Part shown: one piece after another, positions 18,314-44,050 of the stretch
Layout of the letters: every line of letters starts with the position of its first letter
Position numbering within the stretch: the stretch's first letter is position 1
Source of the DNA: a virus
Length of the DNA stretch: 44,050 nt
Reading direction: 5' to 3' (one strand)
Virus record (IMG/VR): IMGVR_UViG_3300009285_000021
Location: 1 to 44,050 of that record
Translations under genes and position numbers: made by a program
Notes under the pieces: generated by a model
Database searches by the model: none
Told to the model about the DNA's origin: nothing
The model's input: only the letters and a program-made list of their open reading frames with translations

Positions 18314-18612
18314 AGTTTAGGGTGTGGGATAAGGTAAAAAAATATTGGTGTGCGTTTGATATTGGCGATATAACTGAAGGTGATATGAACGATATAAGAA
18401 ATGATGTAATTGTTTTGCAATACACGGGATTAAAAGACAAGAACGGAAAAGAAATATACGAATTTATGGAAATAAATAAAAAATACGAAGTTAATTATGT
18501 ACCCCCTAAATATGTCTTGACAAATATATCAAATGGGGATATAATGGATATATCGGAGGTGGAAAAAAATGAAAACGGAATTGAGGTTACTAAGGAATAC
18601 GCAAAAATATAG
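18298..18612 (+). CDS. YopX-family protein
   Basis: MQREIKFRVWDK...VLQYTGLKDKNGKEIYE is the hallmark YopX N-terminal pattern. There is an AAGGAG RBS before the ATG at 18298. Confidence 0.75.
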   Translation: MQREIKFRVWDKVKKYWCAFDIGDITEGDMNDIRNDVIVLQYTGLKDKNGKEIYEFMEINKKYEVNYVPPKYVLTNISNGDIMDISEVEKNENGIEVTKEYAKI

Positions 18613-22403: not shown

Positions 22404-22585
22404 GTTTAATGAATCCTGATAAGGTGGAGAGTTTTAAAATAACTCCTATTTCTATAACGGTAACATTTAAGGAAAAACTAGATAATGGCTGTACAGGGCA
22501 AGTTGTATACATGGAAACACAAAAGTTTATGAAATGTAAAACTTATGAAGAACTTTATAAACAATATCAAGGTGGTGCTTGGTGA
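22400..22585 (+). CDS. Hypothetical protein (61 aa)
   Basis: ATGA-coupled ORF. Confidence 0.45.
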   Translation: MSLMNPDKVESFKITPISITVTFKEKLDNGCTGQVVYMETQKFMKCKTYEELYKQYQGGAW

Positions 22586-24062: not shown

Positions 24063-25306
24063 CTCTTGTTAATCCCCCTTGCTATGGAGAGAATTTTCAC
24101 ATTTCCGGAATTTCGGGCTGTCGTTGGAGTTCTTTAAGTCCAAACACAATAAACAAAGAACCGTTAAAAACCCAAAAGGATTATTATTATGCAATATTCC
24201 CATTTCCATTAGCTTTTGCTTCGACGATATTGAAAAGTCAGGGACATACAGCAAGAGTTTTTGATTTTCTAAATCTTAATATTTCCTATGGGGAAATGTA
24301 TGAAATTTTAAAAGAATTTAACCCAGATAAAATTTATCTTGAAAGTTGCAATGTTTCGTACAATCAAGATATTCAGATATTAGAGAACATAAAAGAGTTT
24401 ATGAATATTCCTGTATGTATGGTCGGAAGTGTGGTAAGACAAAAGAAAGGGGACATACCGAAAGGGATTGAGTACATTGAAGGCAATTACTTACAGACAT
24501 TAGGCGGTGAGAATTACGTTGATTTGTTGACAATGCCGGATCGTGATGATTCGGTACTACTTTACAATGACTATCATTCATTTGCACATATTATCAAAAA
24601 ACCTCAATTACAAGTATGGTCGAGTATAGGCTGTAAGTTTAATTGTAGCTTCTGCTCCTGGCGGTGGAACGTTTATGACGGGAAGGTGGCATACAGAAAG
24701 ATTGAACATATTCGGGACGAAATAAAGTATGCTGTTGAGAAGTGGGGTATTAAGTCTGTGTTACTAGATGATGATACGGTGAACATGAATGATGACAGAA
24801 CAAAAGAACTCGTTAAAATGATAAATAAGGATTTAAAAGGTTTACAATTTTCAGCAATGGTCAGAGCGGACTCGTGCAGTTTAGATACGTTTAAAGCAAT
24901 GAAGGACGCGGGGTTTGTTAGCTTAAAGGTCGGAGTTGAAACGTTCAGCCCGTCCGTACTCAAGAAAATAGGCAAGGGACTTGAATCGGCGGAGTTGCTT
25001 GAGCGGATATTGAAGTTATGGGATATGGGGTACTTCATGTATCTTTCTACCATGTCACACATTTTAGGCGAAACAGAACAAGAAAGAGAAGAAACGAATA
25101 TTATACTAAAGGAACTGGGAACGCTCGGAATAAAATATCAGCGTCCAATGGCGGTGCCTCTTCCCGGTACAAAAATGGGCAAGGAATTTCAGGAGTGGGA
25201 GTTGCGTAATTTTGGGGATGTTATACCTGACTTTGATTATGGCAAGTACGACGGGTCAGGGGAGTTAATGAAAAGGATAATGGCGTATTCAAAGGGGAAG
25301 CAATGA
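24053..25306 (+). CDS. B12-binding-domain radical SAM enzyme (class B)
   Basis: The N-terminus reads RIALVNPP, typical of the cobalamin-binding domain. The CX3CX2C motif is IGCKFNCSFCSW. An Elp3-like core follows (SLKVGVETFS). Confidence 0.8.
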   Translation: MRIALVNPPCYGENFHISGISGCRWSSLSPNTINKEPLKTQKDYYYAIFPFPLAFASTILKSQGHTARVFDFLNLNISYGEMYEILKEFNPDKIYLESCNVSYNQDIQILENIKEFMNIPVCMVGSVVRQKKGDIPKGIEYIEGNYLQTLGGENYVDLLTMPDRDDSVLLYNDYHSFAHIIKKPQLQVWSSIGCKFNCSFCSWRWNVYDGKVAYRKIEHIRDEIKYAVEKWGIKSVLLDDDTVNMNDDRTKELVKMINKDLKGLQFSAMVRADSCSLDTFKAMKDAGFVSLKVGVETFSPSVLKKIGKGLESAELLERILKLWDMGYFMYLSTMSHILGETEQEREETNIILKELGTLGIKYQRPMAVPLPGTKMGKEFQEWELRNFGDVIPDFDYGKYDGSGELMKRIMAYSKGKQ

Positions 25307-26031
25307 TAAAGTTTAATGGTGTAAAAATAAATGTTACTAAGTTTCCAGATAAAACATCACAAGTGTGGAAACTGACAAACCTTGTATCATCAGGCAATAA
25401 TGCTGTGGATTGGTATTTTGATTACGAGGGGGAAATAGTTTTGTTGGCTCAATTAAAATTTCTCTTGGATAGTATGAAAATAATACCAACACTTTACATC
25501 CATTACTTGCCTTATGGCAGACAAGATAAAGAAGTTTCAAATGATTCTACTTTTGCATTATTCCCTTTTGCTAAACTTCTCAATGTTCTGGAATTTAAAG
25601 CTATAAATATATTAGATCCGCATAGTTGGAAAGCAACAACACTTATAAATAATTCAAAGGCAATATACAAATACGAATATTTGCAAAGTGTAATAAAGGA
25701 TAGGAATATAGATGTTTTATGTTTTCCTGACAAGGGAGCATTTGAGAAATACAGTACGTTGCCTGTCTATTCGAGCTTACCATTTATTGTTGGTGAAAAA
25801 GTACGGGAGCAATCTACTGGGAATATAACTCATTATAATATATCTGGCAAAGTTAAAGATAAAAATGTTCTTATCGTTGATGACATTTGTGACGGTGGAG
25901 CAACGTTTATTATTATTGCGAAAAGTATTAAAGCTTTAGGGTCAAAAGAGATTGATTTGTTTGTAACTCACGGACTATTTACTAAAGGCAAAGACATATT
26001 ACTCAACGCAGGTATATCTAAAATATTTTAG
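25303..26031 (+). CDS. Ribose-phosphate pyrophosphokinase-like enzyme (Prs homologue; candidate ADPR-pyrophosphate synthetase Adps of NARP1)
   Basis: Motifs YLPYGRQD, ILDPHS and VLIVDDICDGGATF (the PRPP/ribose-phosphate binding loop). At 242 aa it is shorter than housekeeping Prs. Confidence 0.75.
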   Translation: MIKFNGVKINVTKFPDKTSQVWKLTNLVSSGNNAVDWYFDYEGEIVLLAQLKFLLDSMKIIPTLYIHYLPYGRQDKEVSNDSTFALFPFAKLLNVLEFKAINILDPHSWKATTLINNSKAIYKYEYLQSVIKDRNIDVLCFPDKGAFEKYSTLPVYSSLPFIVGEKVREQSTGNITHYNISGKVKDKNVLIVDDICDGGATFIIIAKSIKALGSKEIDLFVTHGLFTKGKDILLNAGISKIF

Positions 26032-26039
26032 GAGGGGAT

Positions 26040-27524
26040 GTGAAAAAACTTAATGCAATGCTGATGTGCGACTTCTATAAAATAGCTCATAGGACTATGT
26101 ATCCTGATAAAACAGAGTTGGTATATTCAACGTGGATTCCTAGAACATCGAGAATGAATTGTAATGAGGTTGTAGTGTTTGGTATTCAATCTTTTGTTAA
26201 GCTATATCTTATAGATTTCTTTAATGATAACTTTTTCAACAGGAATGAGGAAGAGATTGTAGAAGAGTATTCAAGGATAATAAAAAATACGCTCGGTGAG
26301 CAAACTCCCGATGTACAGCATATAAGAGATTTACATAAACTAGGATATTTGCCATTGAGAATGAGGGCGTTACCCGAAGGATCGGTTATTCCGTTAAGAG
26401 TACCAATGATGACAGTAGAGAATACTAATCCTAAGTTTTTTTGGTTGACAAACTTTATAGAATCTCTTGCTTCCTGTGAACTTTGGCAATCAGCAACATC
26501 CGCAACAATAGCAAGAGAATATAAAAAGATACTTGATTTCTGGGCTATTAAGACAGTCGGCAATACTGAATTTGTTAAGTTTCAAGGACACGATTTTTCA
26601 ATGAGGGGTATGAGTAGTTTGAATTCGGCAATATCTAGTGGGATGGGTCATTTAACTTCTTTTGTTGGTACTGACAATATTCCGGCAATACAGGGAGCAG
26701 AAGAGGTGTACGGTGCGGACGTAGAAAAGGAATTAGTCGGTACGTCTATACCGGCAACAGAACATTCAGTCCAGTGTGCGTATGAGGATGATTTAGAATA
26801 TTTAAGAAATATTATAACAAAAGTACATCCTAAAGGATTTGTTTCAATTGTTTCCGATGGTTATGACTTCTGGGATGTTATCGGTCGAGTTATACCATTA
26901 CTTAAAACAGAAATACTTAACCGCAAGGGCGGTACAATAGGTGACAGAGTGGTAATAAGACCTGATAGCGGTAATCCGGTAAAGATTGTATGCGGTGATT
27001 CAGAGGGTGAAACAGAAATTGAACGCAAGGGAGCAATAGAAGCGTTATGGGATATATTCGGTGGAACTGTATCGGAGAATGGGTATAAGGTGCTTGATTC
27101 ACATATAGGATTGATTTACGGTGACGCTATAACGCTTGAACGCTGTAATGAAATATGCAGACAATTGGAAGCGAAGGGATTTGCTTCAGTAAATTGTGTT
27201 TTCGGTATCGGTTCATATACTTATCAGTACAACACAAGAGATACTTTCGGATTTGCTTTAAAGAGTACTCTTTGCGTTATAGACGGTGTTGAGAAACAAA
27301 TATTTAAAACACCAAAAACGGACAATGGAGTTAAGAACAGCTTAAAGGGTAGGGTTATTGTTGTTGAAGAAAATGGCAAATACAAATATATTGACGGTAT
27401 TGGATTAAAAGAACATAGACCTGAAAACTGTTTGAAGGATGTATTTTCAAATGGTAAACTATGCAATGAACAAACGTTAAGTGAAATAAGAACAAGGATA
27501 ATTAAATACTCGGAGGGAAAATGA
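26040..27524 (+). CDS. Nicotinamide phosphoribosyltransferase-family enzyme (NadV/NAMPT or NARP1 Namat)
   Basis: 494 aa. The N-terminus reads MLMCDFYKIAHRTMYP (the DxYK.xH signature). Further motifs are FQGHDFSMRG, VIRPDSGNP and GLIYGDAIT. GTG start at 26040. Confidence 0.85.
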   Translation: MKKLNAMLMCDFYKIAHRTMYPDKTELVYSTWIPRTSRMNCNEVVVFGIQSFVKLYLIDFFNDNFFNRNEEEIVEEYSRIIKNTLGEQTPDVQHIRDLHKLGYLPLRMRALPEGSVIPLRVPMMTVENTNPKFFWLTNFIESLASCELWQSATSATIAREYKKILDFWAIKTVGNTEFVKFQGHDFSMRGMSSLNSAISSGMGHLTSFVGTDNIPAIQGAEEVYGADVEKELVGTSIPATEHSVQCAYEDDLEYLRNIITKVHPKGFVSIVSDGYDFWDVIGRVIPLLKTEILNRKGGTIGDRVVIRPDSGNPVKIVCGDSEGETEIERKGAIEALWDIFGGTVSENGYKVLDSHIGLIYGDAITLERCNEICRQLEAKGFASVNCVFGIGSYTYQYNTRDTFGFALKSTLCVIDGVEKQIFKTPKTDNGVKNSLKGRVIVVEENGKYKYIDGIGLKEHRPENCLKDVFSNGKLCNEQTLSEIRTRIIKYSEGK

Positions 27525-27754
27525 AGAAGAAACATTTAATAATAGGTGTAGGCGATCTTGTAGACAAGTTGTCAATAGCCAACGCAAAAATAGGACGGCT
27601 CGAAACAAAGGCAAGAAGTGAGAATATATCAAATGAGGAGAGAGGTAAGCTAACATTACAGATAAGACAGATAAATGATAATGACCGTGTTGTAGCCCGT
27701 AACGCCTTAAACATACTATTCGGGAAAGATTACTGGGAGGAAAAAGACAAGTGA
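27521..27754 (+). CDS. 77-aa helical protein of unknown function, coupled at both ends
   Basis: ATGA overlap with the NAMPT-like gene and GTGA overlap with the radical SAM gene. It contains no Cys. The sequence includes DLVDKLSIANAKIGRLE... Confidence 0.5.
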   Translation: MKKKHLIIGVGDLVDKLSIANAKIGRLETKARSENISNEERGKLTLQIRQINDNDRVVARNALNILFGKDYWEEKDK

Positions 27755-28794
27755 GCTATGCAAAATGGAAGAACTTTAAAATATTAAGCCACTATGATAG
27801 TGCTTTAAAAATAAAGGAAGGAAAAAGGGTTTTTCCCCGTATGGCGTTATTTTGCCCGTCATCAGCTTGTGATTTATCCTGTTATTATTGCGATTACCCC
27901 GAGGATAATGCGAAGGCAACAATAATGGCAGAGGATAAGGCATTAGATGTGATTAAGCAGTTAGCGGGTGCAGGTGTAAAGGGAATTGATTTCTGCGGGT
28001 TAGGTGAGCCATTACTTGTGCCTTACGCAAAGAAGTTATTGAACTTAATCAAAACAAAAGGCATGGAGTTTGGTATAATCAGCAATGGAACTCACTTTAA
28101 AGACGATCTAATGGAGTTTATAGTAAAGCACGGGCGGTATATCAGAATTAGTTTAGATTCAGCAATACCTGAACTTTATACTGAAATGAAAGGGGTTGAT
28201 AAATGCGAACTGGTAAAGGAAAACATTGTTAAGGCGATTGAATTTAAAAAGAAAAACAATTACAAATGCGAAATATCAGTTAGAATAGGTTTAACAAAGA
28301 AAAACTTTACAGCTATGAACTTGACTAAGACATTACAATTCTGTTATGAAAGTGGAGTTGATATAATAAACATCAGACCTATGCAACAAGTGGCAGATGA
28401 AATTGACGAAACAAAAGATAAAGAGTTAATCACGTCTTTAATGGAGTTTATAGGACAACGTGAGTATGCAGAGATTATGAAGGGCAAGGAAAGGCGGTTG
28501 ATAGTAAGTTTTAGTAAGTCAACAATAGAAACAAAATGCTGGTTGACGCCTTTACATACGGTTATTATGGCGGACGGTAATGTGTATCTGTGTTGCTACT
28601 TTCAGGATCGTAAGGACAAACATTGTATCGGCAACATACTTGAGAAGCCATTTAAAGAGATATGGGGAAGTAGAAGGCACAAAGAAGCAATAGCAAGTAT
28701 AGACCCAAAAGAGTGCAATCAGTTCAGTTGTAAGTTTCACGGATATAACCGAACCTTAGACGAGTTTATGACATCAGATCCGGAGCATTTATGA
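27751..28794 (+). CDS. Radical SAM enzyme with a C-terminal SPASM/twitch-like auxiliary Cys cluster
   Basis: The CX3CX2C motif is ACDLSCYYCDY, followed by GLGEPLL. The C-terminus reads CWLTP...IMADGNVYLCCYF...HCIGNILEKPFKEIWGS...C..FSC. GTG start. Confidence 0.8.
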   Translation: MSYAKWKNFKILSHYDSALKIKEGKRVFPRMALFCPSSACDLSCYYCDYPEDNAKATIMAEDKALDVIKQLAGAGVKGIDFCGLGEPLLVPYAKKLLNLIKTKGMEFGIISNGTHFKDDLMEFIVKHGRYIRISLDSAIPELYTEMKGVDKCELVKENIVKAIEFKKKNNYKCEISVRIGLTKKNFTAMNLTKTLQFCYESGVDIINIRPMQQVADEIDETKDKELITSLMEFIGQREYAEIMKGKERRLIVSFSKSTIETKCWLTPLHTVIMADGNVYLCCYFQDRKDKHCIGNILEKPFKEIWGSRRHKEAIASIDPKECNQFSCKFHGYNRTLDEFMTSDPEHL

Positions 28795-29669
28795 AAGTTG
28801 GGTTATACCTATCACATATGAACAGTTACACCCACACAAAAGGTGTTTTTGGTGAAGAAATTTTAGTTGATGCCTATATCAAAGGATTACGCAAGAACTA
28901 CCCTGAACATACATTTAACAAATACGGCGACAATATGGGATTTACTCCGATTGTTGACATAGCAATATATTTTAGTGGTAAGGCAAAGAACAAGGGGAAA
29001 CAAAAGAATATTTATATTCAGCAGAATTACAGATTAGAGAACGATTTACAAGCAAAGATAGTAAAACAATACAAAGATATAATACGGGATAGTAATACAA
29101 AGGTTGCGACAATAAGCGGAAAGTATGCAAAGGAACACGGATGGTACTTGCTTGAGCCGGCAGTTGATACAGATTTATTTTATCCGGTTAAGTTTAATCA
29201 ATTGTATAACTTTGATGTTAGCTACATAGGAAACAATATAAAGGACTTAGAGAAATCAAAACAATATCTCGGCATACAAGGTGCAAAGGTCGGAGTATTC
29301 GGACATGGATTTAACAATCCGATAAGTCATAAGGATTCATTGAACATCTATACATCAAGCTTTATAAACTTAAATTATGTTATCAGGCCTGAATTGGACG
29401 TATTGATATGCAGACCGTACCAGATCGCCGGGTGCAAGGGCTTTATAGTAAGTGAGTGGACTGAATCGCTTGAAAAGAACTTCGGGAAAACAATAGAGTA
29501 TGTAAGACCAGGGCAGAATCCGAGTTTAAGGATAAAGGAAGTGTTGGCACAAATAAAAGGCAATACATCAAAGGCAAAACAACAAAGGGAAGAAGCATAT
29601 AAGATTGTGCTTGATAAGTTTAACTGTGAGATACAAGCGGAAAAACTGTGGAGGTGGATAAATGAGTGA
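28791..29669 (+). CDS. CgeB-like (Glyco_trans_1_2-type) glycosyltransferase candidate
   Basis: The C-terminal half reads DVSYIGNN...INLNY...LICRPYQIAGCKGFIVSEW... and resembles 33580-34497 and the CgeB family. Confidence 0.5.
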   Translation: MKVGLYLSHMNSYTHTKGVFGEEILVDAYIKGLRKNYPEHTFNKYGDNMGFTPIVDIAIYFSGKAKNKGKQKNIYIQQNYRLENDLQAKIVKQYKDIIRDSNTKVATISGKYAKEHGWYLLEPAVDTDLFYPVKFNQLYNFDVSYIGNNIKDLEKSKQYLGIQGAKVGVFGHGFNNPISHKDSLNIYTSSFINLNYVIRPELDVLICRPYQIAGCKGFIVSEWTESLEKNFGKTIEYVRPGQNPSLRIKEVLAQIKGNTSKAKQQREEAYKIVLDKFNCEIQAEKLWRWINE

Positions 29670-31062: not shown

Positions 31063-31498
31063 ACCATTACATAAGCAGTTAAAGGTAGTTAAAATACCTG
31101 AATTAAAACAGACGATAGCCGAGGCAACAAGTGGGGCGTTGTCAGAATTAAAGGATATGCAGAAAGAGGATATTATAAACAAACAGGAAGCCATTCGGGA
31201 TGTGTGTTTAAAGGTGGTTGATAGATTACAGGTGCTGTGGGATAAGATAGCGTTAAAGGAAACTGATGAAGCAACGTTAAGGAAGTATTCCGGGTGGTTT
31301 GTAGCACCGTTGGCAGAGATAATGGATTTGGCTCGTAAGGCAAATGTGGATGTTTACGAAATGAGGTATGGCAAGAAGTTACAGATAAACAAAATGGATA
31401 TGAAGTTTGAGGACTTTGTGAAGATGAAGAGAGCGGAGATTGAGAAGCGTCCTGAAAATCAAGTGATAGATGTGACCGAGGTTAAAGATGGCAAATGA
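31049..31498 (+). CDS. Small terminase subunit candidate
   Basis: 149-aa ORF overlapping the TerL start. The call is by position only. Confidence 0.4.
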   Translation: METNEPLHKQLKVVKIPELKQTIAEATSGALSELKDMQKEDIINKQEAIRDVCLKVVDRLQVLWDKIALKETDEATLRKYSGWFVAPLAEIMDLARKANVDVYEMRYGKKLQINKMDMKFEDFVKMKRAEIEKRPENQVIDVTEVKDGK

Positions 31499-32909
31499 AA
31501 TAAGCATAGCCGATAAAGATATACGTGCAAGGATAATTGATATGGCTATTGCCTGTGGAATTACAGACGATTATCAGCATGAAATGATATTTGATGAAAG
31601 TCGGGATATTGTTATAGACAAGGCAAGGGGTATAGGTATAACAACGGCGGTATCATTTCAGAAAATGATTAAGATTTTAATGCCTGAATTGTGGTCGTCC
31701 GCTCAAAGAGAAAATGTTATAGTTTCAGCCGGTGCAGAACAAGCTAGACACTTGATTGATTACGTTAAACACTTCTGGTCGGTGTTAGAAAGTCAGTTTT
31801 CGCAGAAGTTAAAGATAACGAAGGACAAGGCGGAAACTTCGGACGGTCGATGGATTATGTCTTTAGCTTGTGAGCCAGATAGTATTCGTACTTATCACGG
31901 GGACGTAGTGTTTGATGAGTTTGCATATTTTGAGAATGGGTTAGATCGTAAATTCTTTAAGGCGGTATCTGGTGTACAGACTTCCGGCGGTCAGACACAT
32001 TATATCTCTAATCCGAATGGTGAAGCAGGTACGTTCTTTGATATATGGCGTGACAAACAGGGAATTTACAAAAAGTATAGTTTACCTTATACGGTTTGTA
32101 AAAGGAAAATGTACCGTGATACTGTTCTTCGTGCAAAGAAGAAATTATTTGATTACGAGTTTGACGAAGAGTATTGTTGTCTGTTTAATCCCGCTTCACG
32201 TGGGGCTATACCTTATAAGTATATTGATAATGCGGTGAAACAATGGGCGGAGTTGGGGTTAAAGATTAACGAGTACCGTAAAACCGATTGTATGTTAGGA
32301 ACAGGAATTGACTTTGCTAAAATGGTTGACCAAACAATATTGGTAACGCTGGAAAAAAGGAATATGCTTAAAATACCGTATTGGTTGGAAGTTGTTCTCG
32401 GTGATTATGACGAACAATTAAATTACATAGACCGCTTGGACGGAGAGATTAACTCACAGCAAGTATTCTTTGACAAGACTGGTAATGTTAAGTTAGCAGA
32501 GGAAATTGAAAAGCGTTTTTCGCTAAAGTATGTCGGTAAACAATTTACTAATCCGTATAAAGAGAAGTTATTCCAGAAAATCAAGTATGCTTTAATGGAT
32601 CGTAAGTTGCCTTTACCAAATGACGAAGCTTTAATCCGACAACTGAAAGGGCTTAAACGCAAGGTATCCGCTTCGGGCAATGTTCAGTACGCAGGTAAGG
32701 AAGATGACTATGTTTGGGCTTTAGGATTGGCGTTGGACTGTATCGAAGAGGAGGGCGGGGATATTTCAATTGAGGAACGTACTACCGTTGAGAACACAAA
32801 ACACAAAGAAGCTAATCAAGTTATACGCCCGTCTGTATTAACGCAGACAGGTGACTTTGGACGTGGTGAAGTCCGTACAGGTGCAAACTGGGGAGGGATG
32901 TTTAAATGA
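31488..32909 (+). CDS. terL: Terminase large subunit
   Basis: The Walker A-like motif is DKARGIGITT and the Walker B motif is VVFDEFAYF. The C-terminal nuclease region contains GIDFA...D. Length 473 aa. Confidence 0.85.
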   Translation: MANEISIADKDIRARIIDMAIACGITDDYQHEMIFDESRDIVIDKARGIGITTAVSFQKMIKILMPELWSSAQRENVIVSAGAEQARHLIDYVKHFWSVLESQFSQKLKITKDKAETSDGRWIMSLACEPDSIRTYHGDVVFDEFAYFENGLDRKFFKAVSGVQTSGGQTHYISNPNGEAGTFFDIWRDKQGIYKKYSLPYTVCKRKMYRDTVLRAKKKLFDYEFDEEYCCLFNPASRGAIPYKYIDNAVKQWAELGLKINEYRKTDCMLGTGIDFAKMVDQTILVTLEKRNMLKIPYWLEVVLGDYDEQLNYIDRLDGEINSQQVFFDKTGNVKLAEEIEKRFSLKYVGKQFTNPYKEKLFQKIKYALMDRKLPLPNDEALIRQLKGLKRKVSASGNVQYAGKEDDYVWALGLALDCIEEEGGDISIEERTTVENTKHKEANQVIRPSVLTQTGDFGRGEVRTGANWGGMFK

Positions 32910-33400
32910 ATTATTACCCGTCAACAACAGATAAGATGTGGAATGAAGAAAACAAATACACAATCGGCTATTGTTATGGCTTAGGCTTAGATGTAGGTTG
33001 TGGCAATAGGACTTTGCAACCTAATATGATTACGGTAGACAACTGGGCGGACGGTGCTGATTACAAAATGGAAGCGGATAACTTACACGAGTTTAAAGAC
33101 AAGATGTTTGACTTTGTTTATGCTTCTCACGTCTTAGAACATTTGAAAAGTCCGTTAGAAGCAATTGAAGAGTGGTTGCGGGTAGTTAAGGTCGGCGGGT
33201 ATGTAATTATAATAACACCTGATATGCGGTTTGTGCCGACAAAGGGAATGGCAAACGGTGACCCTCAACACAAGTACGACTGGAAGCGTGAAGAGGTTAG
33301 AGAAATGGTCGAGATGTTATCGGGTTGCGAAATGGTTAATAAGAACGTATGGGCGTTGCCTAATTACTCAATGTTGTTTGTTTTGCGGAGGATTAAGTGA
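32906..33400 (+). CDS. Class I SAM-dependent methyltransferase (small, Methyltransf_11-like)
   Basis: Motif I is GLDVGCGN, followed by FDFVYASHVLEHL and VKVGGYVIIITP. Confidence 0.75.
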   Translation: MNYYPSTTDKMWNEENKYTIGYCYGLGLDVGCGNRTLQPNMITVDNWADGADYKMEADNLHEFKDKMFDFVYASHVLEHLKSPLEAIEEWLRVVKVGGYVIIITPDMRFVPTKGMANGDPQHKYDWKREEVREMVEMLSGCEMVNKNVWALPNYSMLFVLRRIK

Positions 33401-33579: not shown

Positions 33580-34497
33580 ATGGCTCGAATACTTATGTGC
33601 TACGCACGAGATGAATACACTACAGCAAGGCATTTTGAAAACGTAATACGGAAATCTAAAGACCATCAGTTTTTAGGTGTTGGATTCACAAAGCCGAATC
33701 TGGCTTCCGTTATGGGCGATCAAGCATGGATTCCAACAGCACAAGAAGTGGTGCTCCCTGATTTACTTTCTAAACTACCCGCTAAACCTGATATTGTTAT
33801 AGTCATGCAGGGATTTGCACCAATGAAGATATATGGAATTGAATCCATAGATATACCCTCGGTGTATTATGGGATAGATACTCATATGGTTCGGGACGTG
33901 ATATTTGAGGAAGCAAAGAATTATAAACATGTATTCTTTGCACAAAAAAAAGCAATTCCAGAGTTTAAAGAGTTTTGCGGTAAGGATAGTCATTGGTTGC
34001 CTTGTTGTGCCGAACCTTTAATCCATAAATCTATGAACTTCGAGCCGGAATATGATTTTGCCTTTGTTGGCGGTATAGATTTAAGCGAAGCCCACAAGCC
34101 CCGCCGGGACGCTATTAAAAAGCTAAAGGAAAAGTATAAGGTGTTTGTAGGAAATGCTTACGGGTACTTTATGACAATGCAATATAACAAAGCAAAGGTG
34201 GTATTTAATTACGCCGTTAATGATGACTTGAATATGAGGGTATTTGAAGCAATGGCTTGTAAAAGACCTCTTTTAACAAATAAATTAAGCGTTGAGAGCG
34301 GTTTAAACGAGTTATTTCAGGACGGGGTAAACCTTATGACCTTTGATGATAACAATTTAATGGAAAAGGCAGAATTGCTTATAAAGGATAAAGCATTACG
34401 AGATAAACTGGCTCAGTCGGGATATACCGAAGTAGTCAATAAACATACTTATCAGAAACGACTGGAGGCAATATGGCAGACAATAGCGAAGACTTAG
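33580..34497 (+). CDS. CgeB-like glycosyltransferase (Glyco_trans_1_2 / DUF3880-type)
   Basis: DFAFVGG...RRDAIKKL...YNKAKVVFNY...NMRVFEAMACKRPLLTN...GYTEVVNKHTYQKRL is typical of the CgeB spore-maturation glycosyltransferase family. Confidence 0.65.
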   Translation: MARILMCYARDEYTTARHFENVIRKSKDHQFLGVGFTKPNLASVMGDQAWIPTAQEVVLPDLLSKLPAKPDIVIVMQGFAPMKIYGIESIDIPSVYYGIDTHMVRDVIFEEAKNYKHVFFAQKKAIPEFKEFCGKDSHWLPCCAEPLIHKSMNFEPEYDFAFVGGIDLSEAHKPRRDAIKKLKEKYKVFVGNAYGYFMTMQYNKAKVVFNYAVNDDLNMRVFEAMACKRPLLTNKLSVESGLNELFQDGVNLMTFDDNNLMEKAELLIKDKALRDKLAQSGYTEVVNKHTYQKRLEAIWQTIAKT

Positions 34498-37944: not shown

Positions 37945-38946
37945 ATGAGTACATGGGGAGAATTACCGTTAATAAGTATAGCAGAAAAGACCACGTTTAA
38001 TCCGCAGTTTTACATTGCGGAAGTAATACAGCAAGTGCAGGAAAGAGCAAAGATTTACCCTGTTGCGGGTATGCTTGAAAAGTTTGGAATGAAAGACCAT
38101 GTTGGACAGACCTTTCAGGGCAACATCACCGTCAATCTGGGTTCTACCGGTGGAACGTACTGGGATTTAAAAGCTGGTACGAAAGTCGCTCTTTCTGGTG
38201 TTGTTACAAAGTCCTATGTCGGGACTGTAAGCGAAATGGGCAACGGCGTTAAGATGGAGAAATTCCTTCTTAATGTTTCGCCTTCCGATATTGAAGGTCG
38301 TTCGGTTCGTTATGCTCTCTCACAGGACATAGCGGATATGCTTGACACCAAAATTCGTAATGCTATCTACACCGCAACTACGAACAAGATGAACGCAGGT
38401 ACTTACGCAACTGTTGGAGCGTTCATAACGATTGGTACTTATGCCAACATGAAAATGAGTTGGAATACAATCGTCAGGATGAACACACAGAAACAAATTC
38501 AGAACATTGATACGGATATGCCTTTCTATATAAATCCGTACCAGAACGAGGATTTGTTCCTTGATACGACTGCTTCCGCTTCTTTCACGGATATTTCCAA
38601 ATATACGGATAAAGGCGTGCAGAAAATCTACGATCTTGAAATAGGTAAAATCGGACAGTTCCGGTTAATACCTACCAACAGGGTTGTAGGAACAAAAGAA
38701 ATAAACGGAACTACGGGTACAGTACAGACCGCAGTTGCGTTCGCAGTTGTCCCTGAGCTTGCAGTTGCTATGGCTTGGGCGTTACCGACTGAATTCAGGT
38801 ATGAAGAGGACTATGATACTGACTTCGGTAGAACTTCTGCACTGGCTCACTATGGTCAGGGTGGAGCTTGCAAACTGGTTGATGAATACTCAATACTGGT
38901 TAAGTCAACAGTAAGAGCGGACATAACCGGCTACGCAATCGGCTGA
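37945..38946 (+). CDS. Major capsid protein
   Basis: 333 aa with an AAGGAG RBS. A strong terminator follows the gene. The position in the head module fits. Confidence 0.75.
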   Translation: MSTWGELPLISIAEKTTFNPQFYIAEVIQQVQERAKIYPVAGMLEKFGMKDHVGQTFQGNITVNLGSTGGTYWDLKAGTKVALSGVVTKSYVGTVSEMGNGVKMEKFLLNVSPSDIEGRSVRYALSQDIADMLDTKIRNAIYTATTNKMNAGTYATVGAFITIGTYANMKMSWNTIVRMNTQKQIQNIDTDMPFYINPYQNEDLFLDTTASASFTDISKYTDKGVQKIYDLEIGKIGQFRLIPTNRVVGTKEINGTTGTVQTAVAFAVVPELAVAMAWALPTEFRYEEDYDTDFGRTSALAHYGQGGACKLVDEYSILVKSTVRADITGYAIG

Positions 38947-38957
38947 TGTAAAAATTT

Positions 38958-38990
38958 ACGGGGCGGGTTTAACCGCCTGCCCCGTTTATT
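38958..38990 (+). terminator. Rho-independent terminator after the capsid gene
   Basis: The stem acggggcggg / ccgcctgccccgt has 10 bp including one G-U pair, with an 8-nt loop. It is followed by tttatt. Confidence 0.7.
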
Positions 38991-39001
38991 AAAGGAGGAT
39001 T

Positions 39002-40090
39002 ATGTTTCTAACTTCTGTAATCAGATTACCTGGCTTCGAAGTAGGTGGAGAGTTCCTTAACTTATACGGACTTGAGCCGTGTAAGACATCTTTGAATACA
39101 ATAAACTTTTTGGCAAAATCACCAATGGCAGAATATATTGCGATTGAGGAAGAGCCGGAAGCTTACAAGAAAAGATATTTTAAAGGTTGTCTTGCATTGA
39201 ATCCGAAATCAAATATCTTAGTAAGTAGATACGGTGGTCTGGGGGATATTCAATTTATACTTCCTGCAATTAAGGAAATCAAGAAACGTTATCCCGAAGT
39301 AAAAATAAGAATGGCAGTCATGGAAAAAGACCGTGAGATGATTCATAATTGTGATTTTATAGACAGTTTTTGTCAGACACATTTTCCGACAGTGAAGGAT
39401 TTAGAATGGTCGGATTATGTACTGGACTTTTTTGATACGGTTGAGGGAATCGGCGAGGACGAAGCGAAGTTAAGAAATCCGATAGATATATCGGCTGAAA
39501 TAGTTGGGTTGAAGTTATCGGACTATAAAGGATTTTGGAAAACAACGGTTGAGGAAAAGAAGTGGGCGGAGTCTATTTTTGCAGGTCGTAAGGGGTTAAA
39601 AATAGCTATGCCGTTATCTGCTTCGTCACCTCATAGGTCGTGGACGTTACAAGATGAACTTATACAAAAGTTAGTAGAGTGGAATAAGGATATTACAGTT
39701 GTTATATTCGGTGAGGGTCAAGGTCATGCGGAAGCGGTTTACAATCGGATTAAACGGTTAAATATTCCGAACGTGATTGATATGGTCGGGAAAACTACTA
39801 CAAGGCAGTATGTGAACTTGGCTTTAGAAGCGGATTGCATTTTCACAAATGATTCGGGAATTGTTAATCTTGGAGCAATCTTTGACAAAAAGATTTTAGC
39901 GATTTACTCAACTGTACCCGCTGAAACAAGAATTAACCATTACGAAACGGTGCAGGGGTTACAAGTTAAGAGCAGTTGTTCCCCTTGCTACAAATTATCG
40001 GCAGAGTGTTTGCATAAAGACAAATGCTTAAATACGGTTACGGTCAATGAAGTGTTTACCAAAATCGTTAGTATGCTGGAGGTCAAATGA
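39002..40090 (+). CDS. Glycosyltransferase family 9 (heptosyltransferase-like)
   Basis: Motifs ILVSRYGGLGDIQFILPAIKEIKKRYPE and VGKTTTRQYVNLALEADCIFTNDSGIVNLGAIFDKKILAIYS are classic GT9 motifs. AGGAGG RBS. Confidence 0.7.
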   Translation: MFLTSVIRLPGFEVGGEFLNLYGLEPCKTSLNTINFLAKSPMAEYIAIEEEPEAYKKRYFKGCLALNPKSNILVSRYGGLGDIQFILPAIKEIKKRYPEVKIRMAVMEKDREMIHNCDFIDSFCQTHFPTVKDLEWSDYVLDFFDTVEGIGEDEAKLRNPIDISAEIVGLKLSDYKGFWKTTVEEKKWAESIFAGRKGLKIAMPLSASSPHRSWTLQDELIQKLVEWNKDITVVIFGEGQGHAEAVYNRIKRLNIPNVIDMVGKTTTRQYVNLALEADCIFTNDSGIVNLGAIFDKKILAIYSTVPAETRINHYETVQGLQVKSSCSPCYKLSAECLHKDKCLNTVTVNEVFTKIVSMLEVK

Positions 40091-40851
40091 CTTACGAAGT
40101 TATCATTTTGAACTGGAACGCAGTATCAAAACTGGCGTATTGTTTGGAAGCATTAAAACAAAACTCTTTCTATACTTCAAAGATAACGGTTATTGACAAC
40201 GCTTCAACGGACGGAAGTATTGAGTTTTTAAAACTTAAAAAGGTCAATGCTATATTCAATACAGAAAACAAACTCTTCACAAAGGCGTATGCGGATTATT
40301 TAAAAGTAGGTGGTAAGGATAAATACTTTGTTGTTATGAATAACGATTGCGTAGTTGAAAAGAATTGGGATAAACCGTTAATTGAGTTTATGGAAAAGAA
40401 CGAACGGGTCGGATTGGTAGCACCTATGTTGGTTGATATAACAGGTCAGCAAGTACAGAATATGGGCGGACTGGCGGACTTCTGTTCTCACAAGGGCGGA
40501 GTACCACAGATGTGGAAACAACCGGAAGAGAACTTATGGACTACCGGGGCTTGTATTATGGTTCGGCGTTCTGCATTTGATGAAGTCGGCGGATTTGATG
40601 AACAGTTTGCGTTCTATTGCTCAGATAGTGATTTGTGTTTGAAATTGGGTTTTGCTGGTTACAAAGTATTCAACATACCCGAAAGCAAGGTCAGACATTT
40701 TCACATGCAGTCAACAAGAAAAGCACAAAGCGAAGGATTACCGATAATGCAGATAGGTCAGCAAGACCAGTTAAAATTTAACCGCAAATACGAGTTACAC
40801 GGTTTGCGGATAGGTCAAATGAGAGAGCCAGTATTGGAGGCAGTTGTATGA
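40087..40851 (+). CDS. Glycosyltransferase family 2
   Basis: Motifs VIILNWNA...TVIDNASTDGS...VMNNDC...GACIMVRRSAFDEVGGFDEQFAFYCSDSDLCLK. Confidence 0.8.
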   Translation: MTYEVIILNWNAVSKLAYCLEALKQNSFYTSKITVIDNASTDGSIEFLKLKKVNAIFNTENKLFTKAYADYLKVGGKDKYFVVMNNDCVVEKNWDKPLIEFMEKNERVGLVAPMLVDITGQQVQNMGGLADFCSHKGGVPQMWKQPEENLWTTGACIMVRRSAFDEVGGFDEQFAFYCSDSDLCLKLGFAGYKVFNIPESKVRHFHMQSTRKAQSEGLPIMQIGQQDQLKFNRKYELHGLRIGQMREPVLEAVV

Positions 40852-41597
40852 GTTATTCAGGCACAGGGGATATAATAAATCGGTGGAACGGCACACGTAG
40901 AATCACGGTGGGTGCTGGTACTTTTATGATTACGACTAATGTTATCGAAGCTATGATAATAAAAGCGGACGCAATCATTGACGTATACACAAGTAATATT
41001 TACGGGACAACTGGTTTCGGTACAAACGTATACGGAACAAAAAGCGTACCACCTATTATAAAATCAATCAGCGAGGATTTAGCGGCGGCGTATTGTATTG
41101 ATGGGTTGGTAATACCCGTGGAAGATGAACTACTTTCTTACGGAACAAGATTAGAAGAAAGAGCAATGGGATTACTAGAAAAAATATCCGCAGGGGAATT
41201 ACCTTTACTCGGATACAATCCAGAAGAAACTGCAATACCTCAAGGCGGAGATTATGACTTTACCGTGTATGATGAAGTTGTTTCATTAAGCGGTACGGAG
41301 TTGGTCAATCTTGCTTGGCGAAAGGTTGTACCTTATAGTGAAGATGTAAAGATAAATGTTTTAGACGGTACAACTGAATATGTTAGAGATACAGATTACA
41401 AAATGTATTACTTTAATGACAGGACTTCGGGAACTAACTTCGGAAAGATTAGACGGTTAGCGACTGGCTCGATAACAAACAATCAACAGGTTAAGATTTC
41501 TTACAACGTCTATAAAGAGCATGTTTTTGGAATAGTTGATCGGCAGGCAATGGGGCAAGTTGACAGTAATGTTGGAATAGGTCAGGTGCTTCCATGA
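40848..41597 (+). CDS. Head-tail connector/adaptor candidate
   Basis: ATGA-coupled 249-aa ORF in the connector slot. The N-terminal helices (IEAMIIKADAIIDVY) are gp6-like. Weak call. Confidence 0.45.
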   Translation: MSYSGTGDIINRWNGTRRITVGAGTFMITTNVIEAMIIKADAIIDVYTSNIYGTTGFGTNVYGTKSVPPIIKSISEDLAAAYCIDGLVIPVEDELLSYGTRLEERAMGLLEKISAGELPLLGYNPEETAIPQGGDYDFTVYDEVVSLSGTELVNLAWRKVVPYSEDVKINVLDGTTEYVRDTDYKMYYFNDRTSGTNFGKIRRLATGSITNNQQVKISYNVYKEHVFGIVDRQAMGQVDSNVGIGQVLP

Positions 41598-42061
41598 ACG
41601 TAGAAATTAAAGGTTTAGACGAGTTGAAACGGATAATGTCAGATATTCGTACTGACATACTTAACGATTCGTCAGAACTTCTAGATTACATAGCGGACAA
41701 GGTTGTTTTCCCGTCTATCATTCGAAACTTTAAAGAAGAGGGACGTCCGAAGTGGCAGGGGTTAGCACCTCGTACACAATTAGAAAGAGCAGGGGAAGGT
41801 TATCCGCCTTCTAATCCGATTCTGTTTCGGACCGGCGAACTGTTTAGAAACTCGACAACAAAAGACGGGGTTAATTACGACTTAGGAAAACATCAGTTGA
41901 CTATGGATTGCATGTTGCGGAAGGGTGAGTGGTTGCATTTTGGAGTTGGCAAGTTACCTGCAAGACCGTTCTTTTACTTACAGAAAGAAGATGAAGCGAA
42001 AGCGGATAGAGAAGTTGGGGTTTTTGTTTCTAAAAAATTACAAAGGATATTAAAGGCATGA
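41594..42061 (+). CDS. Virion morphogenesis / neck protein (Mu gpG or HK97 gp10-like)
   Basis: GRPKWQGLAP.T...PILFRTGELF.S...HFGVGKLPARPFFYL matches the conserved C-terminal (L)P.RPF motif of this family. Confidence 0.6.
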   Translation: MNVEIKGLDELKRIMSDIRTDILNDSSELLDYIADKVVFPSIIRNFKEEGRPKWQGLAPRTQLERAGEGYPPSNPILFRTGELFRNSTTKDGVNYDLGKHQLTMDCMLRKGEWLHFGVGKLPARPFFYLQKEDEAKADREVGVFVSKKLQRILKA

Positions 42062-42351
42062 AATATTATAAAATAAAAACTATTAAAATAAGTAACAATA
42101 CAAGTCAAGATCCTAGTTGGTTGGATGAAAAATATAATAATGGAACTATTAAACGGATTAGATGTTCATCTGATTTAAGTTATGTTTTAGTTGTTTCAAA
42201 AGAATTATTAAACATAAAAGATATATTGGAAATAACCGATATTGAAAAAGAACTTGATATTATATATAGTGAATATCCTTTTATTGATGAATATGGAGTA
42301 ACTATAAATAGACCGACATTAAAAGAAATAGTGGGGGATATATGGCTATAA
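42058..42351 (+). CDS. Hypothetical protein (97 aa), AT-rich
   Basis: ATGA-coupled ORF with noticeably lower GC than the upstream genes. Confidence 0.45.
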   Translation: MKYYKIKTIKISNNTSQDPSWLDEKYNNGTIKRIRCSSDLSYVLVVSKELLNIKDILEITDIEKELDIIYSEYPFIDEYGVTINRPTLKEIVGDIWL

Positions 42352-44050
42352 TCAATATATCTGGAACTATAGGAACTAATGGAACTTGGACTAACAATAA
42401 TGAATATCATTTTACAGCTAATTCTGAAATATCTAAAAATGTTAATATTAAAATAGAACCGAATACTCATGTGATGTATGATTCGGCAGTAACATTTAAT
42501 GTTAGGGGCGGACTAAATGCGATTGGTAATTTTGGTTCAAGAATATATTTTGAAAGTTCTTTAGCTGCTCCACGGACAAATTCTTTTACTTCAGCATTAT
42601 CTATGGGTACACATGATTTAATTAATTTGGACTATATAACTATTCGTAATTGTTCCAATGCTTTTAAATTTAATGGAAGTACTAATCTTGGTAATTTTCA
42701 AGGAAGCCATATCTTTACCGAGAATACAACAAATGTTAATAATATCGCTCCATCGGTAAATGATTATATAAAATATTCATATTCTATTTTTAATTATCCG
42801 AATAATTTATTTAACAATGCAAATAATTTTACATTATATCATGATACATGTGAAATTATGGCTAATGGTAATTTGACTACTGGTACGAACACAGTTAATA
42901 CATTATTTAAAGATGTTAAATTTACAGGCCATTCTGCAGTTGTTAGACTAAATTCTTTTCAAGGTACTGGGATGTATTTTAAAAAAGTAACAAATGTGGA
43001 TTGGTATGGAACTAACAATGTTTTAGAAAGCAGTATATTTGATATATTAGCTTTCAGTCGTTCTTTATTGGGTGCTGATATAAAAGCCAATAAATGCGAG
43101 TATGTTAGTTATCTTCCATCTGCTCAAATTACAGGTACAGTAATTACCGGAACGTTGATTGGTGCAGGACAGTTTAATAATTGTTATGTTGCAGGGTTAA
43201 ATTCTTATGTTAATACATATTGCGAAACCGGAACAGGTGGAAGTATTGACGGGACAGTTGCTGTAACAAGTGCAGGAACAATGTTATCTAATGTTAAATA
43301 TTACGCTTTAAGTGGAACATCAAGGCGATTTACTTTCCTTCCAACAAATATATCAGTTGGAACTGTAGGGACGAATCAAGCCGTTGTTAGTTGGAATACT
43401 GATTTTAGAACTGAACATTCTTTAGTAATAGGCACAATATCTGGCAATTATAATGGGACTATATCTCCGTTTTATTGTTGGACTGGATGTTATGGAAATG
43501 ATTTATATGGAACTACTGCTCAAGTAACTGCATGCTCTCTTCAGGCTGGAACATATTTTTATGTACCAAGATCATACGATTTATTAAAAGATGTTTGGGT
43601 GTCGGGAACAGAAGGAACTTTTGTAATAAGCACAATGTCCATAACGAATGTAACAATAGATAAAACATCAATGACTACTGCGGATAGTGTAACTGTAACT
43701 ATAACCACAGCAACAGGAACTCCGACTGTTGTAGGTGTAAGAATAAACGGAATAGATTTTGAAGCTAGTGGTTCTGCGGGAACGTATACTGTAACAATAA
43801 AAGGAATAAATATAGGAATCGGTTCTGCATTGTCAGTTGTTGCTTATGCGACAAACGATAGTAGTGGAGATGGCATGACTTGTGCAAATACATTAACTGT
43901 AACTCAATCGGTTTACAGTAATCAATACAATATACTGTTAGGTGACTTAAGAGATTTGCTCAATGCAGAGTTTGCTACTGCTGAAAATATGGCTGTGTTA
44001 ATCGGTGATAGGGTATTTCTCGGAAGTATTCCTGCTATTGTTCTTGAGCC
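42342..44050 (+). CDS. 5' part of a junction-spanning 668-aa ORF (it continues at 1-375). It encodes a right-handed beta-helix domain, FN3-like and Ig-like modules, and a neck-protein domain.
   Basis: I translated it by hand from the ATG at 42342 and found no stop before the window end. It is absent from the ORF track, presumably because it has no in-window stop. PbH1-like repeats are present (LDYITIRNCSNAFKFNG..., FTGHSAVVRLN). The FN3-like segment is ISVGTVGTNQAVVSWNT, and the Ig-like segment is ITNVTIDKTSMTTADSVTVTIT. Confidence 0.7.
   Translation, partial: MAIINISGTIGTNGTWTNNNEYHFTANSEISKNVNIKIEPNTHVMYDSAVTFNVRGGLNAIGNFGSRIYFESSLAAPRTNSFTSALSMGTHDLINLDYITIRNCSNAFKFNGSTNLGNFQGSHIFTENTTNVNNIAPSVNDYIKYSYSIFNYPNNLFNNANNFTLYHDTCEIMANGNLTTGTNTVNTLFKDVKFTGHSAVVRLNSFQGTGMYFKKVTNVDWYGTNNVLESSIFDILAFSRSLLGADIKANKCEYVSYLPSAQITGTVITGTLIGAGQFNNCYVAGLNSYVNTYCETGTGGSIDGTVAVTSAGTMLSNVKYYALSGTSRRFTFLPTNISVGTVGTNQAVVSWNTDFRTEHSLVIGTISGNYNGTISPFYCWTGCYGNDLYGTTAQVTACSLQAGTYFYVPRSYDLLKDVWVSGTEGTFVISTMSITNVTIDKTSMTTADSVTVTITTATGTPTVVGVRINGIDFEASGSAGTYTVTIKGINIGIGSALSVVAYATNDSSGDGMTCANTLTVTQSVYSNQYNILLGDLRDLLNAEFATAENMAVLIGDRVFLGSIPAIVLE
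43974..44050. repeat. Second copy of the 77-bp terminal overlap
   Basis: Identical to bases 1-77. Confidence 0.95.

Follow-up and report, generated by a model that had tools for sequence, protein, structure and literature searches.

The subject of this study is a 44,050-nucleotide stretch of viral DNA (IMG/VR record IMGVR_UViG_3300009285_000021; hereafter the window) in which two adjacent genes, encoding a GT9-fold glycosyltransferase (39002..40090, 362 aa; PF01075) and a GT2 glycosyltransferase (40087..40851, 254 aa; PF00535), are located between the major capsid protein gene and the head-tail connector genes. The reading that we favour, tentatively and with somewhat less than even confidence, is that these enzymes carry out a late, cytoplasmic glycosylation of a phage-made protein, most likely a component of the virion. 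GT9 and GT2 would be active, soluble, cytoplasmic glycosyltransferases of the late head-assembly operon; together with a methyltransferase and a PF13524 glycosyltransferase, and probably with a radical S-adenosylmethionine (SAM)/SPASM enzyme and a second PF13524 protein, they would draw nucleotide sugars from the host pool and, while virions assemble, attach to a protein of the phage a short glycan that may also be methylated, the outcome being a glycosylated virion.

We prefer virion glycosylation to a modification of the host envelope because the pair has a conserved, coupled placement in the head operon, because its conservation is core-like and because the enzymes are soluble and come without export machinery; the acidic acceptor half of GT9 and the closeness of the GT2 model to protein O-N-acetylgalactosamine (GalNAc) transferases point in the same direction. 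The relative L069 couples GT9 to a SPASM gene, and the nearest structure to the SPASM enzyme of the window is that of a peptide maturase, which further supports this reading. The same is true of the TibC-like architecture of GT9 and of the precedent set by cluster O mycobacteriophages (PMC11600133).

The glycosyltransferase pair is coupled to the head genes

Window positions 1-77 and 43974-44050 carry the same 77 nt, and we therefore consider the window to be a complete, circularly assembled phage genome of about 43,973 bp. All of its genes lie on the plus strand. The late region runs in the order terminase (31488-32909), methyltransferase, PF13524 protein, Mu-type portal, protease/scaffold, capsid, GT9, GT2, adaptor and neck, the tail tube gene (389-1357) being found past the assembly junction. 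The major capsid protein gene (37945..38946, 333 aa; phrog_1357 major head protein, E 2.7e-14) encodes a member of a rare, 12-member family, one member of which is named an N4-gp56-family major capsid protein by JGI. Downstream of the pair are the genes for a Mu gp36-like head-tail adaptor (40848..41597; weak PF07030 match, phrog_195) and for a tail-completion/Neck1 protein (41594..42061; phrog_26, E 1.2e-9). ATGA overlaps are present at 40087-40090, 40848-40851, 41594-41597 and 42058-42061, the GT9-GT2 and GT2-adaptor junctions thus being each ATGA-coupled. A preliminary description of the window, made from its letters alone, had named the two genes GT9 and GT2 and had placed them as a coupled pair between the capsid and connector genes; the Pfam scores given below bear out the identities, and the overlaps together with the phrog_195 and phrog_26 matches bear out the position.

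A Shine-Dalgarno sequence read from the letters, AAGGAGG (38992..38998), stands 3 nt upstream of the GT9 start codon, and an AAGGAG-type site precedes the equivalent gene in every relative. Between the capsid stop codon and this site lies a GC-rich hairpin (38958..38985) with an 11-bp stem (38958-38968 paired with 38975-38985) and a 6-nt loop, for which a folding energy of -23.3 kcal/mol (66-nt context) and a z-score of -2.4 were calculated; it is followed by TTTATT, a weak U-tract. At the same post-capsid position, a GC-rich hairpin of unrelated stem sequence was found in 8/8 relatives examined, with energies of -16 to -26 kcal/mol and mostly weak U-tracts in a comparison including the window, L001, L002, L006, L017, L019, L020 and L021. 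The preliminary description had a strong terminator here; a GC-rich hairpin is indeed present, but its strength as a terminator is put in doubt by the weak U-tract, the z-score and the fact that a scan for consensus intrinsic terminators did not call it. The hairpin is present whether or not glycosyltransferases follow and so does not speak specifically for the further proposal that a position behind a terminator fits low, catalytic-level expression. Because it also occurs in a relative without a glycosyltransferase at this slot, it belongs with the capsid gene and not with the glycosyltransferases. It is possibly a partial terminator or a stabiliser of the mRNA 3' end, and its retention by position suggests attenuation or mRNA stabilisation.

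The glycan genes are conserved among distant relatives

The capsid-GT9-GT2-adaptor order of the window is found in L001, L002, L006, L070 and L073, which include relatives at only 32-47% protein identity. Adjacency of capsid and GT9 is further found in L019/L020, L021, L072 and L074, and GT2 has the adaptor gene right behind it, or no more than about 10 nt away, in the window, L001, L002, L006, L012, L070 and L073. The terminase-methyltransferase-PF13524-portal order recurs in L002 and L006, an epimerase gene being added beside the methyltransferase gene in L002. Compared with L002 and L006, the window proteins are 54-56% (methyltransferase), 57% (GT2), 46-47% (GT9) and 42-46% (PF13524) identical, the values for core proteins being 32-36% (capsid), 43-45% (portal) and 38-41% (terminase). 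Against the 94%-identical L001, the ratio of nonsynonymous to synonymous substitution rates was 0.050-0.054 for the four glycan genes (GT9 0.051, GT2 0.050, methyltransferase 0.051) and 0.058 for the capsid gene. On these sequence comparisons, the glycan genes are under purifying selection and behave as long-resident core genes and not as recent accessory acquisitions.

In most relatives, a Gly/Thr-rich protein of 150-185 aa without family match is encoded between GT9 and GT2 (L002 9642-10199; L006 9009-9506; L070 1375-1830; L072 1614-1952; L073 1489-1944). Its role may be that of a decoration protein or of an acceptor. As the sole acceptor it is ruled out by its absence from the window and L001, which also lack the insertions described next. 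Two other insertions were seen in the relatives: an HNH endonuclease between GT9 and the 185-aa protein in L002 and, in L006 (9521-10963), a 480-aa protein between GT9 and GT2 that shows GGT-[IV] repeats of about 15 residues by eye and whose C-terminal domain is homologous to a 189-aa protein of L017 (2145-2714).

L069 links the pair to a more distant part of the genome. In this contig (3-3003), genes for a radical-SAM/SPASM enzyme, a PF13524 protein and GT9 form one overlapping string, radical-SAM/SPASM being two genes upstream of GT9 and PF13524 directly upstream; the three proteins are respectively 57%, 39% and 49% identical to the radical-SAM/SPASM enzyme, the second PF13524 protein and GT9 of the window. 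This arrangement ties GT9 functionally to the module found at 27.7-29.7 kb in the window.

GT9 combines an intact catalytic core with a divergent N-terminal half

The GT9 open reading frame (ORF) matches Pfam PF01075 (Glyco_transf_9) with 34 bits for a cut-off of 22, over residues 180-331 only, whereas its family profile covers the whole core in alignments to WaaC and 3TOV. The AlphaFold2 model has a mean predicted local distance difference test (pLDDT) score of 85.5, and its best 28 PDB matches in a Foldseek search all have the GT9 fold (3TOV, 1PSW, 6DFE/2H1H/2GT1 and 4RAP/4RB4). The closest is the Veillonella GT9 3TOV (1e-12); WaaF is matched at 4e-12 by fold and at 1.7e-14 by profile, and the protein heptosyltransferase TibC at a Foldseek E of about 1e-8 with a template modelling (TM) score of 0.56. 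In the profile alignment, D82 corresponds to D13 of WaaC, R212-x-W214 to K192-H-W and D284 to D261; D82, R212/W214 and D284 are invariant or nearly so in family alignments, and the conserved catalytic Asp, [ST]x3[KR]W and N-D-[ST]-G motifs are shared with lipopolysaccharide (LPS) heptosyltransferases. The catalytic residues of GT9, like those of GT2 described below, are thus intact on alignment and not degenerate, degenerate residues being one of the joint conditions under which the preliminary description would have held its proposal refuted. All three NCBIfam heptosyltransferase equivalog models score GT9 under their cut-offs (TIGR02195, 46.9 vs 134.6; TIGR02193, 28.7 vs 185.3; TIGR02201, 18.2 vs 170.2), the WaaC gene of L041, taken as a control, scoring 288. 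By fold and family, the two proteins of the pair are members of GT9 and GT2; the GT9 protein is no WaaC, WaaF or WaaQ equivalog.

Two features distinguish the N-terminal side of the protein. One is a clade-specific, beta-rich and confidently modelled extension of about 65 aa (residues 1-65). That it could be a reusable virion-targeting domain is unsupported: residues 1-70, searched against 1.84 billion representatives, gave matches within their own clade only, with no homologue outside it. The other is charge. As a sequence-level proxy, the isoelectric point (pI) of the N-terminal half is 5.3-5.9 in three phage GT9 proteins and 9.4-9.7 in the two cellular comparators, a Campylobacterota WaaC and a related GT9 protein from a lipooligosaccharide (LOS) locus. 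In heptosyltransferases, the basic acceptor-side half binds the anionic lipid A-Kdo at the membrane; judging from these pI values, the phage GT9 seems to have lost the basic half seen in its LOS-locus relatives. At the C-terminal end, an invariant Cys4 motif is formed by C326, C329, C336 and C342 (spacing C-x2-C-x6-C-x5-C). By analogy with the GT9 family, the donor of GT9 would be ADP-heptose; since no heptose-nucleotide synthesis genes were found in the complete genome, it would have to be supplied by the host.

GT2 has a GT-A fold close to protein O-GalNAc-transferases

The GT2 ORF matches PF00535 (Glycos_transf_2) with 55.8 bits for a cut-off of 23.3 and, weakly, PF02709. Its model (pLDDT 94.5) adopts the GT-A fold, the nucleotide-binding D..D and DXD-like motifs are present, and D37, N38, S40, D42, D87 and H204 are invariant across 39 homologues; H204 is placed where, we presume, the metal-binding His is to be expected in polypeptide GalNAc-transferase-like enzymes. 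The best 42 matches of the model to solved structures are polypeptide Ser/Thr O-GalNAc-transferases (E 2.5e-14 to 8e-12, TM 0.61-0.74), a ranking inflated by PDB redundancy that reflects the known relationship of GT2 and GT27. By sequence, bacterial homologues of GT2 are named rhamnosyltransferase or generic GT2, and its best NCBIfam similarity is to the mycofactocin glycosyltransferase MftF, far under the family cut-off. The donor would be a UDP- or dTDP-sugar.

A wider set of putative glycan genes

We propose that two genes of the terminase-portal interval belong to the same glycan set as GT9 and GT2: a class I SAM methyltransferase gene (32906..33400; PF08241, E 8.9e-12) and, directly upstream of the portal gene, that of a GT-B glycosyltransferase of the PF13524 (Glyco_trans_1_2) family (33580..34497; E 3.2e-21). 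Probable further partners of the pair are the radical SAM/SPASM enzyme (27751..28794; PF04055 and PF13186), whose best PDB match is SkfB (E 1.6e-5), a peptide maturase, and the second PF13524 GT-B-like protein (28791..29669; E 6.8e-8), encoded by a gene coupled to the radical SAM gene. The preliminary description had overlooked the link to both of these gene pairs. It had also counted five glycosyltransferase-like proteins in the genome, of which Pfam supports four (28791-29669, 33580-34497, GT9 and GT2); to reach a fifth, one would have to include the two proteins of the phosphoribosyltransferase family at 25303-27524.

About 4 kb of the 44-kb genome is taken up by the four glycan genes of the head operon, and the total rises to about 8 kb (18%) when both radical-SAM genes, the second PF13524 gene and a second methyltransferase gene are included. 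Their GC content is like that of the adjoining genes. Transmembrane segments are absent from all of the glycan enzymes (maximal Kyte-Doolittle mean over 19 residues, 1.26). No multi-pass membrane protein is encoded in the complete genome, which therefore has no flippase or Gtr-type partners, and the PADLOC defence-system models gave no match for the glycosyltransferases.

Two further enzymes were observed upstream. Among solved structures, the aminoglycoside sugar diol-dehydratase AprD4 comes nearest (E 2e-7) to a B12-type radical SAM enzyme (24053-25306), and a second class I methyltransferase (22579-23358) is encoded near it. Both may modify sugars for the same glycan.

Cellular relatives of GT9 lie in LOS loci of Campylobacterota

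The only cellular relatives of GT9 to be found form a Cys4-bearing GT9 subfamily, which a genome scan located on 46 contigs; every one of these belongs to the Campylobacterota (Sulfuricurvum, Sulfurimonas, Arcobacter/Aliarcobacter and Sulfurovum), and the CxPC..C..C motif (CSPCYK..C..C) is present in 46/46. It should be noted that the alignment behind the scan pattern included one such protein, so that this restriction to Campylobacterota describes the Cys4 GT9 subfamily and is no unbiased survey. The relatives sit in LOS/LPS-core loci, with the order WaaC, LpxL, unknown, GT9, RmlA, RmlC, RmlD in L041 and GT9, SDR epimerase, GT2 in L029. Identity between phage and cellular GT9 proteins is 23-31%, the similarity of the window protein being confined to the donor-binding C-domain, and the epimerase of L002 is 28-32% identical to the products of genes adjoining cellular GT9 genes. 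With identities of only 22-32%, we reject the idea that GT9, epimerase and GT2 were captured recently from a LOS locus of the host; an ancient origin of the three from such a locus is plausible on these comparisons.

Genome, host and rarity of the lineage

The genome has a GC content of 37%, and neither tRNA genes nor Rfam families were found in the window. When the GenBank phage collection was searched at the DNA and protein levels, no isolated-phage relative of the region or of GT9 came up; the best matches there reach only about 30% identity for the portal protein and about 25% for GT2. In IMG/VR, scanned with GT9, the capsid protein and a capsid alignment, nothing turned up beyond the 94%-identical relative and fragments, and a metagenome scan added three further short contigs. 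The lineage is rare: 5.8 billion proteins yielded about 8 close homologues of GT9 and 12 of the capsid protein, and the window phage has no cultured relative. Its contigs come from sediment and groundwater samples.

The host is probably a Gram-negative member of the Campylobacterota, given the cellular relatives of GT9, the strong Shine-Dalgarno sites, the GC content and an M15 endolysin cassette. In this lysis cassette (8194-8574, 8688-9362 and 9648-10130), the endolysin is small and has Peptidase_M15_4 as its single domain; the ORFs behind it carry hydrophobic segments at their N-termini. It is of the Gram-negative type, in keeping with a Campylobacterota host.

Other observations concern the remainder of the genome. 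Five HNH/NUMOD-type homing-endonuclease-like ORFs are dispersed over it (7014-7511, 9307-9651, 18569-19072, 20411-21094 and 23355-24062). Pfam matches identify a phosphoribosyl pyrophosphate (PRPP)-synthetase-like protein (25303-26031) followed by a NAMPT/NAPRTase-family protein (26040-27524), a pair resembling Adps and Namat of NARP1, a pathway by which phages reconstitute NAD+ and so counter defences that deplete it (bioRxiv 10.1101/2024.02.11.579819). A protein of about 670 aa crosses the assembly junction (42342-44050 on into 1-375). Its C-terminal 147 aa are conserved, and L070, L006 and L017 encode them as a gene of their own; the N-terminal part of about 450 aa, within a stretch of 27% GC, is unrelated to the beta-helix (PF13229-like) version of the 94%-identical L001. 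It looks like an exchanged fibre/depolymerase-like module on a neck or tail-terminator protein.

Which molecule is glycosylated

Under the reading that we favour, the acceptor would be a protein, the candidates being the capsid protein, the tail tube protein, the Gly/Thr-rich protein of the relatives and the neck-associated fibre-like protein, and the glycan would bring a biological benefit. Several results weigh against it. The best structure and sequence matches of GT9 are LPS heptosyltransferases, and TibC lies beyond the reach of its sequence profile, not being returned from the PDB at E up to 1. The Cys4 motif is no marker of protein substrates, since it is common to all 46 cellular LOS-locus relatives, and the GalNAc-transferase ranking of GT2 counts for less than it seems, for the reason given with it. 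Among the relatives, L017, whose capsid protein is 64% identical to that of the window, has its capsid-adaptor slot filled by the 189-aa protein alone, a glycosyltransferase being absent there, and the GT9 gene of L069 does not adjoin a capsid gene; from these two cases, capsid adjacency is neither universal nor required. Ser/Thr-rich C-terminal tails were found on neither the capsid nor the tail-tube proteins of the window and its relatives, although other sites may serve. It is because no acceptor has been identified, because these tails are missing, because the L017 slot is without a glycosyltransferase and because GT9 best matches LPS enzymes that our confidence stays somewhat short of even.

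The main rival, on account of where the cellular GT9 relatives are encoded, is a remodelling of the host envelope, which we nonetheless regard as unlikely. GT9 and GT2 would here add sugars to the LOS/LPS core at the cytoplasmic face and leave export to the route of the host, the altered receptor excluding other phages or sparing progeny from being trapped on cell debris. The preliminary description had offered virion and envelope as alternatives; the virion fits better, and the envelope keeps its place since the nearest cellular GT9 proteins, in all 46 cases from Campylobacterota and bearing the same CxPC..C..C motif, are found in LOS-core gene orders such as those of L041 and L029. The epimerase of L002, as similar as it is to neighbours of cellular GT9 genes, the agreement of the GT9 catalytic residues with WaaC and WaaF, and the fact that WaaC-type enzymes need no flippase of their own also suit this explanation. 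Yet GT9 falls far under the NCBIfam cut-offs for heptosyltransferases I, II and III, its acceptor half is acidic and it carries the clade-specific N-terminal extension. Translational coupling to late virion genes would moreover be poor timing, because the LOS already present would remain. No integrase or repressor was identified in the genome, hence no sign of the lysogenic expression that is typical of serotype-converting genes, and a conservation at the level of core virion genes is unusual for host-derived accessory 'moron' genes.

The two other explanations place the sugar on neither virion protein nor envelope. That radical-SAM/SPASM enzyme, methyltransferases and glycosyltransferases are one scattered pathway to a non-virion product, either a small molecule or an unpackaged ribosomal peptide or protein, is improbable, even though L069 couples GT9 to the SPASM radical SAM gene and PF13524, GT2 is nearest to MftF in NCBIfam, the radical SAM enzyme is similar to peptide maturases and the B12-type radical SAM enzyme resembles the sugar-modifying AprD4. 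The NCBIfam similarities are far under the family cut-offs, no precursor-peptide gene was identified, and such a pathway leaves unexplained why four glycan genes are interleaved and translationally coupled with head genes across relatives of less than 50% identity. A glycosylation of phage DNA, in which sugars would be placed on a modified base after replication or at packaging as a protection against host nucleases, is highly improbable. Phage clusters of glycosyltransferases acting on 5-hydroxymethylcytosine (5hmC) do exist and can neighbour terminase and structural genes (bioRxiv 10.1101/2023.12.21.572611), and the genome encodes two radical SAM enzymes, two small-molecule-type methyltransferases and one DNA methylase. 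However, a search of all ORFs of at least 150 aa in the complete genome with Pfam, PHROGs and NCBIfam, in which ORFs of 351 and 264 aa without annotation leave a small gap, found no homologue of thymidylate synthase/dCMP-hydroxymethylase, TET/JBP dioxygenase or C5-cytosine methyltransferase. The sole DNA methylase is of the N6/N4 type (PF01555), and the described enzymes that transfer heptose to DNA are T4 beta-GT-like and not GT9.

Glycosylation of a virion protein can be drawn more narrowly, though in this form we find it decidedly unlikely: GT9 would be a protein heptosyltransferase that evolved, independently of TibC/Aah, from a Campylobacterota LOS-locus Cys4 GT9 by a swap of the acceptor half and the gain of an N-terminal domain and that, with GT2, PF13524, methyltransferase and SPASM enzymes, builds a methylated heptose glycan coat on the virion proteins of a phage of a Gram-negative host. 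If true, no system of virion glycosylation would have preceded this one outside the actinobacteriophages; it would use ADP-heptose of the host, and an LPS heptosyltransferase would for a second time, independently, have given rise to an enzyme that modifies proteins. To our knowledge, mycobacteriophages are the only phages in which enzymes encoded by the phage have been shown to glycosylate the virion, and there is reportedly little evidence of this in other phages. The lineage is thus a concrete, testable candidate for virion glycosylation in a phage of a Gram-negative host by a different enzyme family. A positive outcome would widen the known range of phage particle modification, with consequences for particle stability, for receptor and antibody shielding and for how therapeutic phages are designed. 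Should the target be host LOS or another product, the case would still be unusual, envelope-glycan genes having become fixed as core late genes of a phage.

Comparison with known systems

Virion O-glycosylation has been described in the mycobacteriophages Che8, Corndog and Myrna (Freeman et al. 2023, Cell Host Microbe, as cited in PMC12619734, PMC11600133 and PMC11256854). In cluster O, an O-methyltransferase and three glycosyltransferases modify both the capsid and the tail tube (PMC11600133), a make-up that is also that of the methyltransferase/PF13524/GT9/GT2 set reported here. Both systems have phage-encoded glycosyltransferases, conserved here in the lineage together with a methyltransferase, and the proposed targets are virion proteins. 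The gene arrangements differ. The preliminary description had the mycobacteriophage glycosyltransferase genes beside the capsid gene, a weak point: they are near the 3' end of the genome, and not next to the capsid gene, in cluster F1 (PMC11256854), and form three tandem genes downstream of the O-methyltransferase gene in cluster O (PMC11600133). The genes of the window are, by contrast, interleaved with head genes. There is no detectable orthology either, the best actinophage match of GT2 being to Gordonia phage JonJames at 25% and GT9 being matchless; the acceptor feature known from mycobacteriophages, Ser/Thr-rich C-terminal tails, is not found here, the probable host is a Gram-negative bacterium, one of the enzymes has the GT9 fold, and the system is known from its genes alone.

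Among protein heptosyltransferases, TibC acts on a protein acceptor and has an N-terminal beta-barrel of 97 aa and a Cys4 iron finger made of C339, C342, C358 and C370 (PDB 4RAP, 4RB4; PMC4358343). The phage GT9 shares with the TibC/Aah BAHT enzymes the GT9-like GT-B core and solubility, and its N-terminal beta-rich domain and C-terminal Cys4 metal-finger-like motif may be counterparts of the barrel and the finger. Its extension, however, is of about 65 aa and not a 97-aa barrel, the Cys spacing differs, and the Cys4 motif is inherited from the LOS-locus GT9 subfamily; with no sequence-level match between the two, GT9 does not fall within the BAHT family by sequence. The TibC/Aah enzymes form a dodecameric ring and have an autotransporter substrate gene next to their own; no autotransporter gene is present in the phage genome. 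WaaC/WaaF and the Cys4 LOS-locus GT9 proteins provide the best fold and profile matches and share the catalytic motifs and the CSPCYK..C..C motif; the phage protein differs from them by its acidic N-terminal half, its extra N-terminal extension and its setting in a head operon. For GT2, the closest structures are polypeptide GalNAc-transferases of family GT27 (for example human GalNAc-T2 and T. gondii GalNAc-T3), which also have PF00535 in common with it and, weakly, PF02709, but the likeness is at the level of the GT-A fold, with 16-21% identity and no lectin domain in GT2.

The serotype-converting Gtr systems (GtrA/B/C) likewise combine a phage GT2-family enzyme with a Gram-negative host. 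In lysogens, a membrane anchor holds GtrB, whose partners are a flippase and a glycosyltransferase of the membrane, whereas all the enzymes described here are soluble and without flippase or membrane partners in the complete genome. In phage DNA sugar clusters, glycosyltransferases related to LPS and teichoic-acid enzymes put hexose, N-acetylhexosamine and heptose on 5hmC, using JGT/TarP-like GT-A and T4 beta-GT-like GT-B enzymes, and the clusters can adjoin terminase and structural genes (Pyle et al., bioRxiv 10.1101/2023.12.21.572611). Recruitment of glycosyltransferases from envelope-glycan enzymes is common to those clusters and to the present set, but the glycosyltransferase classes are unlike and no enzyme making 5hmC or 5-hydroxymethyluracil was found here. 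Finally, Vibrio phage SBP1, the Synechococcus phages S-SRM01 and S-T4 and further uncultured phages also encode GT9-fold proteins, for none of which a function was given in the search output, so that a GT9 gene in a phage is not new per se. What is new is a conserved glycan set that is embedded in the head operon and built round a GT9 gene.

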